From an uncultured Gammaproteobacteria bacterium (GTDB lineage: Bacteria > Patescibacteriota > Microgenomatia > CAZETR01 > Amesbacteraceae): a stretch of DNA of 39,952 bases. The position numbers were made by a program, and so were the translations under genes. Below the pieces are notes generated by a model. That model made no database searches. It saw nothing but the letters and a program-made list of their open reading frames with translations, and was not told where the DNA came from. Where the stretch lies: NCBI GenBank assembly GCA_964358085.1, contig CAYHNU010000003.1, forward strand, positions 1 through 39,952, written 5' to 3'. Positions 966 to 33,532 of this stretch are shown piece after piece (within the stretch, counting starts at the first letter, position 1; the number at the start of each line of letters is the position of its first letter).

Positions 966-2340
966 ACTTTCTCTTTCAGAAGCACTCGCCGGATTAAGGG
1001 TTAAAAAATTTTCCAGTGTTGAACTGGTGCAATCCTGTTTAGATCAGATTAAAAAACATGATAAAAAGTTAAACATTTATCTGGCTATAAATGAAAAAGC
1101 CCTTGACGAAGCCGAAAAAGCAGATGTCTCTAAATCCTTAGGCGGCATCCCCATTGCTGTTAAAGACAATTTTTTAACCCTCGGTCTCCCCACAACCGCA
1201 TCCTCAAAAGTCCTCGAAAACTATATGCCCCAATATGAGTCCACCGTGACCCAAAAACTTAAAAGCGCGGGGGCCATTATTTTAGGTAAAACAAATATGG
1301 ATGCTTGGGCCCATGGCAGTTCCACTGAAACCTCCGATTTCGGTCCCACTTTGAATCCCTGGAATACCAATCATCTGCCTGGTGGATCTTCCGGCGGATC
1401 AGCTGCCGCTGTCGCTGCTGATATGTGCATTGTCGCTATTGGTAGCGAGACCGCCGGATCAATCAGACAACCAGCAGCCTGGTGCGGGGTGACCGGTTTC
1501 AAACCTACTTACGGCCGGGTCAGCCGTTACGGAGTTATTGCTATGGCTTCTTCTACTGACTCCCCCGGCCCCCTAACTAAAACAGTAGGAGATTCGGCTC
1601 TGCTTACTCAAATCATCGCCGGTCACGACCCTTACGATGCCACGACATCTCCCCTACCAGTAGAGGATTACTCAAATCTCAAATCTCAAATCTCAAATCT
1701 CAAAATAGGCATCGCCGTCGATTACCTCGTCAAAGAAATGCGTCCTGAAGTCAAACAAGTTATTCTAGACGCTGTTAAAAAGTTTGAAGAATTAGGAGCC
1801 AAAGTAGAAGAAGTTTCTTTACTGCACCCCAAATATTCAATTGGCGCATATACTATAATCCAACGCTCAGAAGTTTCTTCGAATTTAGCCAGATATGATG
1901 GAATCCGTTTCGGACACGATAGATCGTATTTTGGCGATGAGGCCAAACGCCGCATCATGTTGGGAACTTATGCCCTATCATCTGGATACTACGATCAGTA
2001 TTACAACAAAGCCCAAAAAGTCCGGACACTAATAATTAAAGATTTTGAGCAAGCCTTCAAAAAGTTTGACTTAATTATTGGGCCGACCTCACCGGGACCT
2101 GCCCTTAAAATCGGAGCCAGCATTGATTCTCCTATGTTTGGCGAACTGGAGGACATATTTTTGGAACCCAGCTCAATAGCCGGATTGACCAGTATTAGCG
2201 TTCCATGTGGATTTGTAGATGGACTTCCCATCGGCCTACAAATCACCGGCCCTCAATTTGCTGAAAAGTTAGTTTTACAAGTCGCTCACAGTTATCAATT
2301 ATCCACGGACTGGCATGTTCAAAAACCGCAACTTTCTTAA
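955..2340 (+). CDS. gatA: Asp/Glu-tRNA amidotransferase subunit A
   Basis: Amidase signature [51 protein letters not shown]. Confidence 0.97.
1671..1705 (+). repeat. In-frame heptamer array (CTCAAAT)x4 + CTCAAAA in gatA
   Basis: Read directly; encodes [11 protein letters not shown]. Confidence 0.9.
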
Positions 2341-2360
2341 GCTCGGCAGAAAGGGGGACT

Positions 2361-3566
2361 ATGTCTTGGCAAACGGTTTTGGGATTTGAAGTCCATATTG
2401 AGCTTGGCACGAACACGAAGATGTTCTGTGCATGCCCTGCCGATCATTTTGGCGCAGCGCCAAACACCCAAGTGTGCCCGGTTTGTTTGGGTTTACCCGG
2501 CGCCCTTCCGGTTCCCAACGCCCGCGCAATTGAGTGGTGCGTCAAGTTAGGTCTAGCTCTGGGTTGCGACATAAATCTTTTCTCTAAATTTGACCGTAAA
2601 AACTACTTTTACCCTGACCTGCCCAAGGGATACCAAATCAGCCAGTACGATATCCCCTTTTGCAAAAATGGAGCACTGCTTGGTCACAAAATTACCCGGG
2701 TCCACTTAGAGGAAGACACCGCCAAACTCCAACACTCCGGATCAGAAACTCTCATCGATTTCAATAGAAGCGGCGTACCTCTGGTCGAAATCGTCACCGG
2801 TCCGGATTTTGTCTCTTCGGACGACGGGGTCCTATTTCTAAAAGAAGTCCAGGCCATTGTTAGGGCTTTAGGTATTTCCAGCGCTGATATGGAAAAAGGA
2901 TCAATGCGCCTGGAAGCCAATATTTCCGTCAAACGCCCTGACCACCCCGACCTCCCTGATTACAAAGTCGAGGTCAAAAACGTCAACTCATTTAGATTTA
3001 TTAAAAAAGCCATTGACTTCGAAGTCATGCGTCAATCACGTATCTTGGAATCAGGTGCTAATCCGGTGCAAGAGACACGCGGTTTCAAAGAGTCCACAGG
3101 AGAGACCGTCAGCCAGCGGATCAAAGAAGAAGCCAACGATTACCGCTACTTCCCCGAACCCGACATTCCCCCGCTCAAGTTTACCCAGAGCCAAATCTCA
3201 ATTTGGCGAAGGGAATTGCCCGAACTTCCGGCTCAAATCCGTCATAAACTTATATCCACTCACCATTTGTCTCCTCAATACGCCGCCAAAATTTTAGCCG
3301 ATCCGCAAATGCTCGCGACCTTTCTGCAAAATCCTACCAAAACTACAGCCGATGCCTTGGTCAATAAGCGTTCATTACAAACCAGCGCAACAGTCAAAGT
3401 CGATCCCGAAGTAGTAAGTCGAATTTTGGTTGCCAATCCCAAAGCCGTGGCTGATTTTAAATCCGGCAAACAACAAGCCCTTTTCTTCCTCATCGGCCAG
3501 GTCAAAAAACAACTCGGCAATGTTGATGTGGCCCTTGTCAAAAGGACTGTTGAAGAATTAATATAA
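2361..3566 (+). CDS. gatB: Asp/Glu-tRNA amidotransferase subunit B (shortened C-terminal region)
   Basis: GFEVHIEL, FDRKNYFYPDLPKGYQISQ, HLEEDTAK, DYRYFPEPD. Confidence 0.97.
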   Translation: MSWQTVLGFEVHIELGTNTKMFCACPADHFGAAPNTQVCPVCLGLPGALPVPNARAIEWCVKLGLALGCDINLFSKFDRKNYFYPDLPKGYQISQYDIPFCKNGALLGHKITRVHLEEDTAKLQHSGSETLIDFNRSGVPLVEIVTGPDFVSSDDGVLFLKEVQAIVRALGISSADMEKGSMRLEANISVKRPDHPDLPDYKVEVKNVNSFRFIKKAIDFEVMRQSRILESGANPVQETRGFKESTGETVSQRIKEEANDYRYFPEPDIPPLKFTQSQISIWRRELPELPAQIRHKLISTHHLSPQYAAKILADPQMLATFLQNPTKTTADALVNKRSLQTSATVKVDPEVVSRILVANPKAVADFKSGKQQALFFLIGQVKKQLGNVDVALVKRTVEELI

Positions 3567-3612
3567 CTTATCCGGAAACTGGGGCTGGGCCCCTGCCAAC
3601 GCAAGGATTTAT

Positions 3613-31551: not shown

Positions 31552-31844
31552 AAATCTTTCCATCCCTTATTAATTTTGTCCCTATCATTATCAGGCACGT
31601 CTTCATGTAGCAAGTCGATGTACGTTCTCTTATTTTCATAAGTCAAAGATATTTGCACTCGGGAAGGTTTACTTTGTTTTCCGCTCCAACAGTGGGCAAC
31701 CAGTGATTTTTTGGGTTTAACCTCCAAATTTTTAAACCGCACCATTTCTCTCAATATTCTTGTCGGACCAGCCGGATTCATCATTGCATCCCACACTTTT
31801 CCCGCACCCGCGTGAACAATATAGCTCTGTCGAATTACGCTCAC
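31503..31844 (-). CDS. SRPBCC/AHSA1-like domain protein
   Basis: IRQSYIVHA...VWDA, PSRV.I.L....[19 protein letters not shown]. Confidence 0.7.
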
Positions 31845-31864
31845 TATCTATATAATAACACAAA

Positions 31865-33532
31865 ATGACCAAAAAAATATTAGTATTTATTGGTATTTAT
31901 TGGTATCTATTCCCGAGTCCGGCCTCAGCCTCGGGAGAATTCTACATCAAACAAAATGTTGATTATAAATTCGACGCGTTGGGCCGCTCCACTATTACCT
32001 TCAATGTATCCCTAACCAACAAAACGGCTAACTACTACGCTTCCAAGTACGAACTAGAACTAGTAGGGGAGGACCCCAAAAATGTTACCGGGCGCGACTC
32101 AGTCGGCCCTCTTAAAATTATCACCTCTCCCACTGCCGCAGATACTACCCGTATTGTGGCCAACTTTAACGATGTGGTCGCGGGCCCCGGAAAATCTTTA
32201 TCTTTTACTCTCCAATATCAGGGCAAACCTGCCGTGCACAATGGCCAAGTTTGGGAAATAAACCTCCCCAAGCTTTCCCGTCCTGCGACCGTAGACGAAT
32301 ACACTCTGAACCTGATTGTTCCGCTCTCCTTTGGTCAACCGGCTTATTTATCTCCTCCTCCCGCGTCTTCTGACGGCAACAGATATGTTTTCACCAAAGA
32401 CCAACTTTCCAAGGTGGGGGTGGTGGCCGCTTTTGGAAATTTTCAAACTTTTTCTTTCCGCCTCAAATATAAAATCAACACCCCTTCTCAAATTGCGTTA
32501 CCCGCTGATACCGCCTATCAAAGAATTTTTTTTGATTCAATCACCCCTTTACCTAATTCCGTTACCGCTGACGCCGACGGCAACTGGCTAGCCGGTTTCA
32601 ATCCCGGTGAAATTGTCGTCACCGGCCAGGCAAATCTGCTGTTAGAACCTCTTTCGTCATTTACTGACTCACCTCCGGAAAAATATCTTTTCCCCACAGC
32701 TTACTGGCCGGCCGACAATCCGCAAATTAAAGAGCTGGCTAAGTCCTTAAAAACTCCCCGGAAAATTTACGATTACGTAGTGGAAAACCTTGAATACGAT
32801 TACGCCTCCGCCGCGTCCCTCACTGCCACCCGCAAAGGCGCTCTCGCCGCTCTTTCTTCCGGCTTAGGCGTCTGCACCGAATTCACCGACCTGTTTATTG
32901 CCCTGGCCCGGGCCGCCGGCATCCCTGCCCGTGAGGTAAATGGCTATGGCTATACTACGGACCTGCGTTTGCGCACCCCCCTCCACTCTTGGCCCCAATA
33001 CTGGGATGCTACCCGCCAGGTTTGGGTCAGTGTCGATCCCACCTGGAGCCGCACCACTGGAGGGATAGACTATTTCTCCAAATTAGATTTTAACCACCTG
33101 TCCTTTGTCACCCACGGCTTGTCCGATTCTTTACCCGATTTCTCCGCTACTGATATTCAAGTCAGTTACGGATCGTACCACGAGTACCCCGCTACACCTC
33201 TTATTACTAAATGGCAATCGCCCTTATTTATTCTTCCGTTTATTCCCAGCACCTTCCGTTTGCGAATCACCAACCCCAACCCTCAAGCTGTCTATTCCAA
33301 CCCCGTAACACTACCTCCCTATGGATCAAAGGTCCTGACAGTCCGGTACACTCTTATCCGTCCTTTTGATTTTAGTCCCAAATCCGTAACCCTCATAAAT
33401 ATGACGTATAATATCCCCACGACTTTATTTCTTCCCTGGCAAATCGGCTTTGCTATCCTTATCTCACTTACCCTTATCGCCGGGAGTCTATATCTTCAAA
33501 AACGCTTCCGGCCAGGTTCTATACGTCGGTAA
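31865..33532 (+). CDS. Exported/membrane-anchored transglutaminase-like protein
   Basis: GVCTEF..LFIALARAAGIPAR.V.GY, HSW, DPTW (Cys-His-Asp); signal peptide and C-terminal TM. Confidence 0.88.
   Translation: MTKKILVFIGIYWYLFPSPASASGEFYIKQNVDYKFDALGRSTITFNVSLTNKTANYYASKYELELVGEDPKNVTGRDSVGPLKIITSPTAADTTRIVANFNDVVAGPGKSLSFTLQYQGKPAVHNGQVWEINLPKLSRPATVDEYTLNLIVPLSFGQPAYLSPPPASSDGNRYVFTKDQLSKVGVVAAFGNFQTFSFRLKYKINTPSQIALPADTAYQRIFFDSITPLPNSVTADADGNWLAGFNPGEIVVTGQANLLLEPLSSFTDSPPEKYLFPTAYWPADNPQIKELAKSLKTPRKIYDYVVENLEYDYASAASLTATRKGALAALSSGLGVCTEFTDLFIALARAAGIPAREVNGYGYTTDLRLRTPLHSWPQYWDATRQVWVSVDPTWSRTTGGIDYFSKLDFNHLSFVTHGLSDSLPDFSATDIQVSYGSYHEYPATPLITKWQSPLFILPFIPSTFRLRITNPNPQAVYSNPVTLPPYGSKVLTVRYTLIRPFDFSPKSVTLINMTYNIPTTLFLPWQIGFAILISLTLIAGSLYLQKRFRPGSIRR

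Follow-up and report, generated by a model that had tools for sequence, protein, structure and literature searches.

Tandem micro-arrays of about 30 nt in the genes of a groundwater bacterium and their apparent link to four-helix-bundle cassettes

The DNA analyzed here, called the window throughout, is a stretch of 39,952 nucleotides (contig CAYHNU010000003.1 of assembly GCA_964358085.1). It is contig 3 of the source genome, G000, a groundwater bacterium represented by 693 kb in 66 contigs (92% complete). Its genes carry short tandem arrays, most of them of heptamers, within their reading frames, and it also holds a cassette in which a four-helix-bundle gene lies between arms made of tandem repeats. 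An initial annotation had listed nine such micro-arrays in coding sequences. Seven of the nine were called by Tandem Repeats Finder (TRF) or by a lag-match detector, used at a strict score of at least 14 and a looser score of at least 10, whereas 19577-19604 and 30025-30057 were called by neither. The gene names given at that stage proved correct: Pfam matches agree with them in the window, and every array-hosting open reading frame (ORF) is intact. What had been missed is a 36-nt composite module, TCT(ACTATGA)2(ACYAATA)2ACY, which lies in frame in dnaE, uvrA, and uvrC. Relatives are labelled G001-G030, and C-numbers (C1, C2, C11, C20) denote contigs of G000. The arrays and modules of the window are the following, with the coordinates of each host gene in parentheses.

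1671..1705, + strand: array in gatA (955-2340), CTCAAAT x4.9 with 100% matches, called at 1671-1704.
6862..6897, + strand: composite module in dnaE (3613-7095), TCT(ACTATGA)2(ACCAATA)(ACTAATA)ACCCA, translated as STMNYEPITNNP.
9889..9920, + strand: array in the gene of a GT-C (PMT_2) glycosyltransferase (8725-10374), CTATTTA x4.6 with 96% matches.
17351..17378, + strand: decayed array in the PGI (SIS) part of the PGM/PGI fusion gene (15816-17807), ATCYAGC x3.9 with 80% matches.
19193..19234, + strand: array in the first inter-domain linker of PpsA (ppsA, 18242-20500), about five copies of ACCGAAY encoding TESPNTEHRE, called at 19199-19232.
19577..19604, + strand: weak CCGAnnn periodicity in the second PpsA linker, where only CCGA recurs.
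27673..27707, + strand: array in uvrB (26369-28348), 3.9 to about 5 copies of TCTAATY with 85% matches, encoding DLISNLQSLISK, called at 27673-27705.
29791..29826, + strand: composite module in uvrA (28711-31551), encoding 12 residues.
30025..30057, + strand: weak 9-nt periodicity in uvrA, covering 11 residues.
30506..30540, + strand: 35-nt element in uvrA, a 14-nt word at a 21-nt period, covering 12 residues.
31878..31911, + strand: array in the N-terminal hydrophobic segment of a transglutaminase-like protein (31865-33532), 10-mer TATTGGTATT x3.4 with 91% matches.
34158..34193, + strand: composite module in uvrC (33450-34616), 36 nt identical to the dnaE copy.

The uvrA copy of the composite is 89% identical to the other two. 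Several of these sequences recur elsewhere in G000: the uvrB-array peptide and its unit at C11:5820, the 10-mer of the transglutaminase-like gene in a second array at C1:76194, and the uvrA 35-nt element, with 5 mismatches, at C20:6496. The AATACCG/AACACCG family comprises seven arrays in that genome. Orthologous sites in relatives are often occupied as well. The first PpsA linker varies in length and bears other arrays in relatives, and the site of the weak periodicity in the second linker holds clear heptamer arrays in G002, G004, and G008. The 9-nt periodicity at 30025-30057 of uvrA may reflect periodicity at the protein level; G006 has CCCTAA-type repeats at that site. Of 11 public runs, all of them Logan contigs of DNA, four were also compared with the window; these contigs are consensus sequences, in which rare variants are invisible. 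In them, a relative of about 85% identity has small indels at 9884-9910 that do not lend themselves to interpretation.

The number of arrays is far above chance. Two shuffle controls were used, permutation of the codons within each ORF and permutation of synonymous codons only. The window holds seven period-7 arrays, against means of 1.06 under the codon shuffle and 1.35 under the synonymous shuffle, and none of the 200 shuffles of each kind reached seven. Its two period-10 arrays compare with 0.03 and 0.12, respectively, and at period 9 the window coding sequence showed no excess over either shuffle. Across G000, 51 period-7 arrays score at least 14 (means of 4.0 and 4.6 in the shuffles) and 114 score at least 10 (16 and 22; ten shuffles of each kind). 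TRF reports 168 period-7 rows among 545, where the two shuffles, run five times each, give 31-35 and 38-49, and under the strict detector every period other than 7 yields at most seven arrays. Some arrays persist in the shuffled genomes because intergenic DNA was left unshuffled in the genome-wide controls. As the synonymous shuffle preserves all protein sequences, the periodicity belongs to the DNA and not to the peptides. Hence, of the three periods that the initial annotation had put forward for scanning, period 7 bears nearly all of the coding excess and period 10 adds to it, whereas period 9 contributes none in the window coding sequence.

What the arrays have in common is their length. 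Period-7 arrays of G000 peak at 30-32 nt and drop steeply above 35 nt. For well-scoring, non-overlapping TRF loci, the medians by period are as follows.

Period 6: length 27 nt, 4.5 copies.
Period 7: length 31 nt, 4.4 copies.
Period 8: length 28 nt, 3.6 copies.
Period 9: length 32.5 nt, 3.65 copies.
Period 10: length 29 nt, 2.9 copies.

The constant quantity is thus a length of about 30 nt and not a number of units, which bears out the uniform size that had been remarked on from the window alone. The arrays are head-to-tail repeats of 5-11-nt units above expectation and in that sense belong with the long simple-sequence repeats. The initial annotation had suspected a common generating process rather than ordinary microsatellites, and the frequency well above both shuffles, the shared length, and an orientation bias described below all support that view.

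The units fall into families. At the looser threshold, 95 of the 114 arrays of G000 lie in ORFs and 19 outside, and 67 belong to unit families of at least two members, when units drawn from genomic 7-mer frequencies give a mean of 13.5 and a maximum of 30. The largest family has 11 arrays (null maximum, 4). Multicopy unit families with a median of 4.4 tandem copies, both genic and intergenic, are thus present, as in the Geobacter repeats discussed below. The composite occurs in ten copies in G000 (at most 7 mismatches of 36) and ten in 365 kb of G002, with a related copy in the PpsA linker of G005; no copy was found in the 164-200 kb searched in each of G018, G011, G021, and G016. The ATCYAGC family of the PGI array recurs in the PpsA linker of G004 and in UvrB of G005 and G018. 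Many other units occur only once in G000, the gatA unit CTCAAAT among them. CTCAAAT was considered as a dispersed family and dropped, as many of the run contigs match only 1674-1704, with unrelated flanks; this is compatible with one unit recurring by chance among the numerous array-bearing genomes in these communities and was not used as support. A single-linkage clustering of units (at most one mismatch, all rotations, both strands) merged 108 of the 114 arrays and was likewise abandoned as too loose. Members of a family are not clustered along the genome (8 pairs within 30 kb versus 8.55 in label shuffles).

Peptide tolerance does not explain the choice of units. The commonest unit of G000, AAATTAG, contains a stop codon on both strands, and 38 of the 95 coding-strand consensus units have a cyclic stop that is removed by a mismatch in the real ORF arrays. 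The arrays show no bias of codon phase or gene strand. They are, however, oriented: the coding strand of arrays has 11.9% G versus 23.8% in all ORFs, and among the 21 units that are free of stops on both strands, C exceeds G on the coding strand in 17 and falls below it in 2. A test for strand bias had been proposed at the outset, and the bias it reveals is not accounted for by stop codons.

At the protein level, the arrays take the place of resident sequence instead of adding to it. The UvrB array site aligns without gaps in 29 orthologues, the distant ones having an ordinary helix there (DLISEIRRRV...), and heptamer arrays of various units occupy it in G001, G002, G005, G018, G006, G015, and G004. 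In an AlphaFold model built from 15 orthologues, this array lies on helix 432-445 with a predicted local distance difference test score (pLDDT) of about 90. The gatA array encodes 11 residues of a variable loop flanked by conserved D-Y and L-K-I-G; the length of the loop equals that of 29 orthologues to within 1-2 residues, and arrays of other units stand there in G005, G006, G007, and G028, the last being a perfect AAGTTCA x4.5. Compared with the array-free G016, length differences at 17 spanned sites range from -9 to +19 residues, with a median of 0. The exception is the uvrA composite, which adds length, G000 being 9 residues longer than three same-genus or near relatives. From these alignments and the model, arrays mostly replace resident sequence, in frame, in tolerant loops, linkers, and one confidently predicted UvrB helix. 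The frame is indeed preserved by 7- and 10-nt units, as the initial annotation had stressed, but there is nothing special about the units in this respect: the frame survives because the arrays are length-neutral rewrites of about 33 nt rounded to codons.

Two uvrA sites deserve a separate mention. The loop orthologous to 29791-29826 carries an in-frame, GC-rich palindromic insert (...SPHPSPGQRHERSENLGEGAGGEV...) in G006 (L038) and G018 (L037), which by its sequence is a different kind of small element at the same tolerant site. The 35-nt element is identical in G002, differs at 4 of 35 positions in G018, and also occurs in G006 and G004. In G001 and G005, which are closer relatives, other sequence has replaced it, and other arrays are found at the site in G001, G015, and G010.

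Comparison with the sister species G002 gives the clearest view of how arrays change. The 365 kb available hold 58 arrays with the same length mode as in G000, and the top family is AAAAATT instead of AAATTAG, at orthologous loci too. When 43 arrays of G000 were mapped to G002 by both flanks, 29 had the same length, all differences were multiples of 3, and, in these consensus sequences, none was a single 7-nt step. At about ten sites, G002 bears a different family of equal length; at C2:12558, for instance, ACCGAAT x4.7 corresponds to the composite, 33 nt each. The 19 orthologous pairs that align without gaps are bimodal, six being at least 90% identical and the others 45-72%. In the six conserved arrays, third codon positions are 0.95 identical versus 0.62 in the flanking 120 nt. 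Judging from these pairs, an array is either actively maintained between sister species or exchanged in its entirety for another module, a pattern that argues against a one-off neutral mutational by-product.

Repeats of the same kind also form the arms of cassettes, one of which lies in the window between the PGM/PGI gene and ppsA.

17802..17842, + strand: left arm of the cassette, tandem 9-mers (AATTAACCT).
17841..18230, + strand: four-helix-bundle gene (PF05635 23S_rRNA_IVP; TIGR02436), the cargo of the cassette.
18204..18242, + strand: right arm of the cassette, tandem 9-mers (CAATTAGGT), the inverse complement of the left arm.

The encoded protein matches PF05635 with 42.7 bits (cut-off 33.8), TIGR02436 with 61.9 (cut-off 24), and PDB 2RLD with E = 4e-9. 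In the minimum-energy fold of 17795-18250 the arms pair (z = -3.3), none of 100 shuffles folding equally well. The locus therefore has both the PF05635 ORF and, in the predicted fold, the inverted-arm stem of an S23p-type intervening sequence (IVS), although it is not inserted in helix 25 or 45 of a 23S rRNA gene. In two contigs of run X7, 17832 is followed directly by 18211, so that the four-helix-bundle gene is lacking, and other public-run contigs have 1-28 unrelated letters in place of 17832-18211. The gene is thus a presence/absence polymorphism. The cassettes are small and apparently mobile. In G000, each of the five PF05635 genes lies between inverted arrays with units of 7-11 nt. The layout is the same at six of the seven PF05635 sites examined in G002, G021, G020, G007, and G022, and at several of 11 examined in G018 and G022. 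Solo arrays made of some of these arm units also occur, which upholds the link to four-helix-bundle genes that the initial annotation had proposed. In G000, the 8-mer TAAGAGAT is found at about 21 other loci and the 9-mer of the window cassette at about 9, when, by our estimate, the chance expectation for such 21-nt arm-unit matches is far below one. In one G002 cassette the arms are members of the composite family, and in a G022 cassette one arm (TTGGAAA) is the top solo family of that genome.

Array density, measured in 14 of the 31 genomes over samples of 100-693 kb each, differs widely among relatives. Per 100 kb, it is 16.4 in G000, 15.9 in G002, 15 in G020, 13.4 in G018, 13 in G022, 9.5 in G011, 9 in G021, 8 in G025, 5 in both G004 and G007, 1 in G030, and 0 in G029, G026, and G016, the last having no period-7 array in 200 kb. 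Over these 14 related genomes, density correlates with the count of PF05635 genes (Spearman rho 0.60) and with the count of genes resembling repetitive extragenic palindromic (REP)-associated tyrosine transposases (RAYTs; rho 0.66). Repair and polymerase genes were examined as discriminators and discarded, none of them separating array-rich from array-free genomes. MutS (PF00488) and MutL (PF01119) were present in 2 of the 31 genomes searched and were not found in G000; of those two genomes, G024 has 3 arrays in about 19 kb and G026 none in 100 kb. The ExoVII large subunit scored above the cut-off in 6 of the 31 and RNase_T in 19, in both cases on either side of the array divide, and among five genomes searched the Y-family polymerase (IMS) was found only in G016 and G018, which does not discriminate.

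The window itself contains a RAYT-like Y1 (HUH) transposase gene (24715-25389, + strand) adjoining lexA. It matches PF01797 with 35.9 bits and REP_Tyr_transpos with 43 bits, under the cut-off of 80, and has the hairpin TTCCACCCCWGGGGTGGAA on both sides, at about 24666-24690 and 25411-25435. G000 has five such paralogues, four of which have a REP-like hairpin of their own on either side, and these hairpins form dispersed families of 7-15 copies.

The reading that we favor, while holding it tentatively, is that of a dispersed repeat system tied to IVS-like cassettes, which would spread by short templated patch replacement in a genome without MutS/MutL. The lineage would share a system of modules of about 30 nt, built of tandem units of 6-10 nt with 7 predominant, which stand in two settings: inverted pairs that form the stem arms of cassettes, and solo copies in frame in tolerant gene segments and in spacers. 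Existing modules, cassette arms included, would serve as donors for patch replacement, through either a template switch during replication or very short gene conversion. Identity over about one unit would suffice to seed a patch, donor and target could pair in any register thanks to their tandem structure, and the patch would end where the donor module ends, at about 30 nt. Without MutS and MutL, the mismatched intermediate could survive, and selection would then retain copies that have no in-frame stop and lie where the protein tolerates any sequence. Such patch replacement would account at once for the neutrality in length, for a cap set by the length of the module, for the families, and for the units matched to their flanks in gatA and uvrB. 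A stronger version, in our opinion improbable, makes the cassettes an active short-patch rewriting system. The Avd/S23p-family protein and the arms would direct the copying of a patch of about 30 nt to sites that share about one unit, the outcome being an in-frame, length-neutral cassette mutagenesis of loops and helices in which each cassette maintains its own solo family. Such a system would be akin to a diversity-generating retroelement that lacks the reverse transcriptase, RVT_1 having no match in the five genomes searched.

Several observations weigh against patch replacement from cassette-linked donors. We infer the copying step from the patterns. The top 7-mer families of G000 (AAATTAG and the composite) have no match among its five assembled cassettes, and solo ORF arrays have an inverted partner within 1 kb no more often than random controls (4/95 versus 3/95). 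The gatA unit CTCAAAT resembles its own conserved right flank, which could be the seed, and in uvrB, G000 and G002 each have a unit that matches the left flank of their own array; both facts fit a purely local process too. The correlations with gene counts come from 14 kin, partly sampled genomes and are suggestive only; PF05635 and RAYT-like counts are themselves intercorrelated (rho 0.66) and may only mark repeat-rich genomes. G029 has two PF05635 matches and no array in 100 kb, and G007 has arrays and no RAYT-like match. Finally, MutS/MutL were not found in the array-free G016 either, so that the loss of mismatch repair is not sufficient; the absence of MutS/MutL may be permissive.

A purely local process is a serious rival, although we consider it less probable. 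The replicative or a repair polymerase would misalign by one unit, preferably of 7 nt, realign, and overwrite its neighbor at fixed length, with no need of a donor, a function, or a link to cassettes. Among long simple-sequence repeats, heptamers are over-represented in many prokaryotes, and an account based on the polymerase footprint is in print (cited in passages of PMC4692102 and PMC4679880). The many single-occurrence units, the unit shared with a conserved flank in gatA and in uvrB, where G000 and G002 each follow their own, and the failure to find MutS/MutL in G000 all agree with such a process, and it explains single-copy units and flank-matched arrays. It does not, however, predict that unrelated loci have families, the composite, and even "defects" in common, that whole arrays are swapped at orthologous sites for another family of the same length, or that 6 of 19 orthologous arrays are conserved above the level of synonymous sites. 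A 7-nt footprint does not predict a constant length across periods 6-10 either, nor would a local process make solo 8-mer and 9-mer families copy the arm units of cassettes. Some relatives without MutS/MutL have no arrays (G016, G029, and G030, the last at 1 per 100 kb), and the content of ExoVII, RNase_T, and Y-family polymerase does not separate array-rich from array-free genomes. Conservation of nucleotides beyond synonymous sites in some arrays, together with the persistence of the uvrA 35-nt element across genera, the presence of the composite in dnaE, uvrA, and uvrC, and the G-poor coding strand of the arrays, would rather suit modules that are selected as functional sites in RNA or DNA. 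They could be targets of a complementary arm transcript, with which they would form a duplex of about 30 bp for RNase III to cut, or binding sites for a protein such as a global regulator or the four-helix-bundle protein. Two papers lend this idea some precedent, as the 4x/5x heptamer families of Geobacter are annotated as putative regulatory elements (PMC2700814) and RNase III cuts the stems of S23p-type IVSs (PMC4990558). Nevertheless, the families and single-copy units are many, sister species swap families at one site, the hosts are functionally unrelated (gatA, glycosyltransferase, PGI, PpsA, UvrB), and a function would leave the origin of the 30-nt matches unexplained; we regard selected sites as an unlikely explanation.

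Mobility by transposition is more doubtful still. Here the modules would be miniature mobile elements moved by the five RAYT-like Y1 (HUH) transposases of the genome, whose count is the best correlate of array density and whose proteins retain the HUH and tyrosine motifs. It also counts in favor of this reading that IS200/IS605 and RAYT enzymes act on single-stranded DNA at replication forks. The expected substrates of these enzymes are, however, their own dispersed REP-like hairpins and not direct-repeat arrays, Y1 transposition inserts and so adds length where the arrays mostly replace, and arrays exist in G011 and G028 with one RAYT-like match and in G007 with none. Least probable of all, and very much so, is that the arrays are contingency loci, the host gene being switched off and on whenever the repeat slips by one unit. 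Every 7-nt step does shift the frame, and there is precedent for phase variation by heptanucleotides, neuO being an example. Yet the hosts are single-copy housekeeping genes (gatA, dnaE, uvrA, uvrB, uvrC, ppsA, and PGI) instead of dispensable, usually surface-related genes that are switched, the arrays have no more than about 5 units, and the sister species has the same number of units at 29 of 43 sites, with length differences that are all multiples of 3.

Some further features of the window lie outside the question of the arrays. The GC skew is negative throughout (-0.06 to -0.30) despite nearly all genes being on the + strand, which makes the coding strand C-rich. PGM domain I is a separate ORF (15473-15883) overlapping the ORF at 15816-17807, in which PGM domains II-III are fused to PGI/SIS; either a frameshift or an unusual start in the fused PGM-PGI gene would explain the split. 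Exact 22-nt repeats lie at 11838-11859 and 12126-12147, 288 nt apart, and a pair of tRNA-like 3' ends lies at 38885-38988. The public-run contigs show depth peaks and many loose ends at 11796-11853; tRNA genes in variable surroundings are the probable explanation. GatA is 84% identical to its counterpart in G005, from another genus, and only 52-54% identical to those of three same-genus genomes. By contrast, UvrA, UvrB, and PpsA are 83-91% identical to the same three, which suggests, on these identities, that transfer has replaced gatA in one lineage.

For decades, families of short heptamer repeats have turned up in several phyla and have stayed unexplained. Three features narrow the range of mechanisms: overwriting that is neutral in length, including in the buried-looking UvrB helix, modules that are kept or swapped, and units and a size that are common with the arms of cassettes. 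If the copying step is true, it would be a so far undescribed route by which selfish DNA reshapes proteins in the smallest bacterial genomes. On the practical side, array segments distort marker-gene alignments, trees, and selection tests in candidate-phyla bacteria. Our literature searches on heptanucleotide or tandem repeats and small dispersed repeats, in which subscription journals were poorly covered, returned nothing on such arrays in these bacteria.

Among systems in other lineages, REP/REPIN sequences with their RAYTs have a counterpart in G000, whose RAYT-like genes are flanked by dispersed REP-like hairpins; the arrays differ in being direct repeats, and no RAYT-like gene is flanked by them. 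DNA uptake sequences (the uptake signal and DNA uptake sequences, USS/DUS) also accumulate by replacement, at tolerant coding positions, and shift from species to species, but here there are dozens of units and not one motif. The palindromic elements of Rickettsia are selfish DNA held in frame in housekeeping proteins, at surface positions, as insertions of 100-150 bp that add residues. Repeated DNA is likewise tolerated in frame in housekeeping proteins of G000, but the modules, direct repeats of about 30 nt, mostly take the place of residues and are not palindromic inserts.

The nearest parallels to the arrays themselves are heptamers. In Geobacter metallireducens, dispersed families of 4 and 5 heptamer units, one of them with 49 copies, lie within and between genes and have no known function (Aklujkar et al. 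2009, PMC2700814). The multicopy families of 4-5 tandem heptamers, both genic and intergenic, are alike in the two organisms, whereas Geobacter has one or two GC-rich families annotated as regulatory elements, and the passages concerned report no length-neutral rewriting of proteins, swapping of families, or cassette arms. Long simple-sequence repeats of the 5-11-nt class, in which heptamers predominate (Mrazek et al. 2007, as cited in passages of PMC4692102 and PMC4679880), and the short tandemly repeated repetitive (STRR) heptamers of cyanobacteria share the 7-nt excess and the lineage-specific occurrence. Those repeats, however, lie mainly between genes, may be long, and are put down to slippage, whereas the arrays of G000 stay near 30 nt at every period, lie mostly in frame in ORFs, and form families. 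The TAACTGA direct repeats of marine Beggiatoaceae and cyanobacteria (MacGregor 2015, PMC4679880) are likewise scattered sets of 2-6 tandem heptamers with a patchy phylogenetic distribution, and passages of that paper discuss the effects of their orientation on stop codons; according to the same passages, they consist of a single unit and lie mainly upstream of start codons, not in conserved coding sequence. The S23p-type IVSs in the 23S rRNA of Coxiella and Leptospira, as Warrier et al. (2016, PMC4990558) present them, are small selfish elements with a PF05635-family ORF between stem-forming inverted arms. The window cassette, recognized here from its sequence, has the same layout but lies between protein-coding genes and has tandem repeats as arms. 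Families of 4-5 heptamer units (Geobacter), the excess of heptamers, and S23p-type IVSs are therefore already in print, and what the present analysis adds is the length-neutral rewriting, the kept-or-swapped pattern, the negative results on repair genes, and a length that does not depend on the period.

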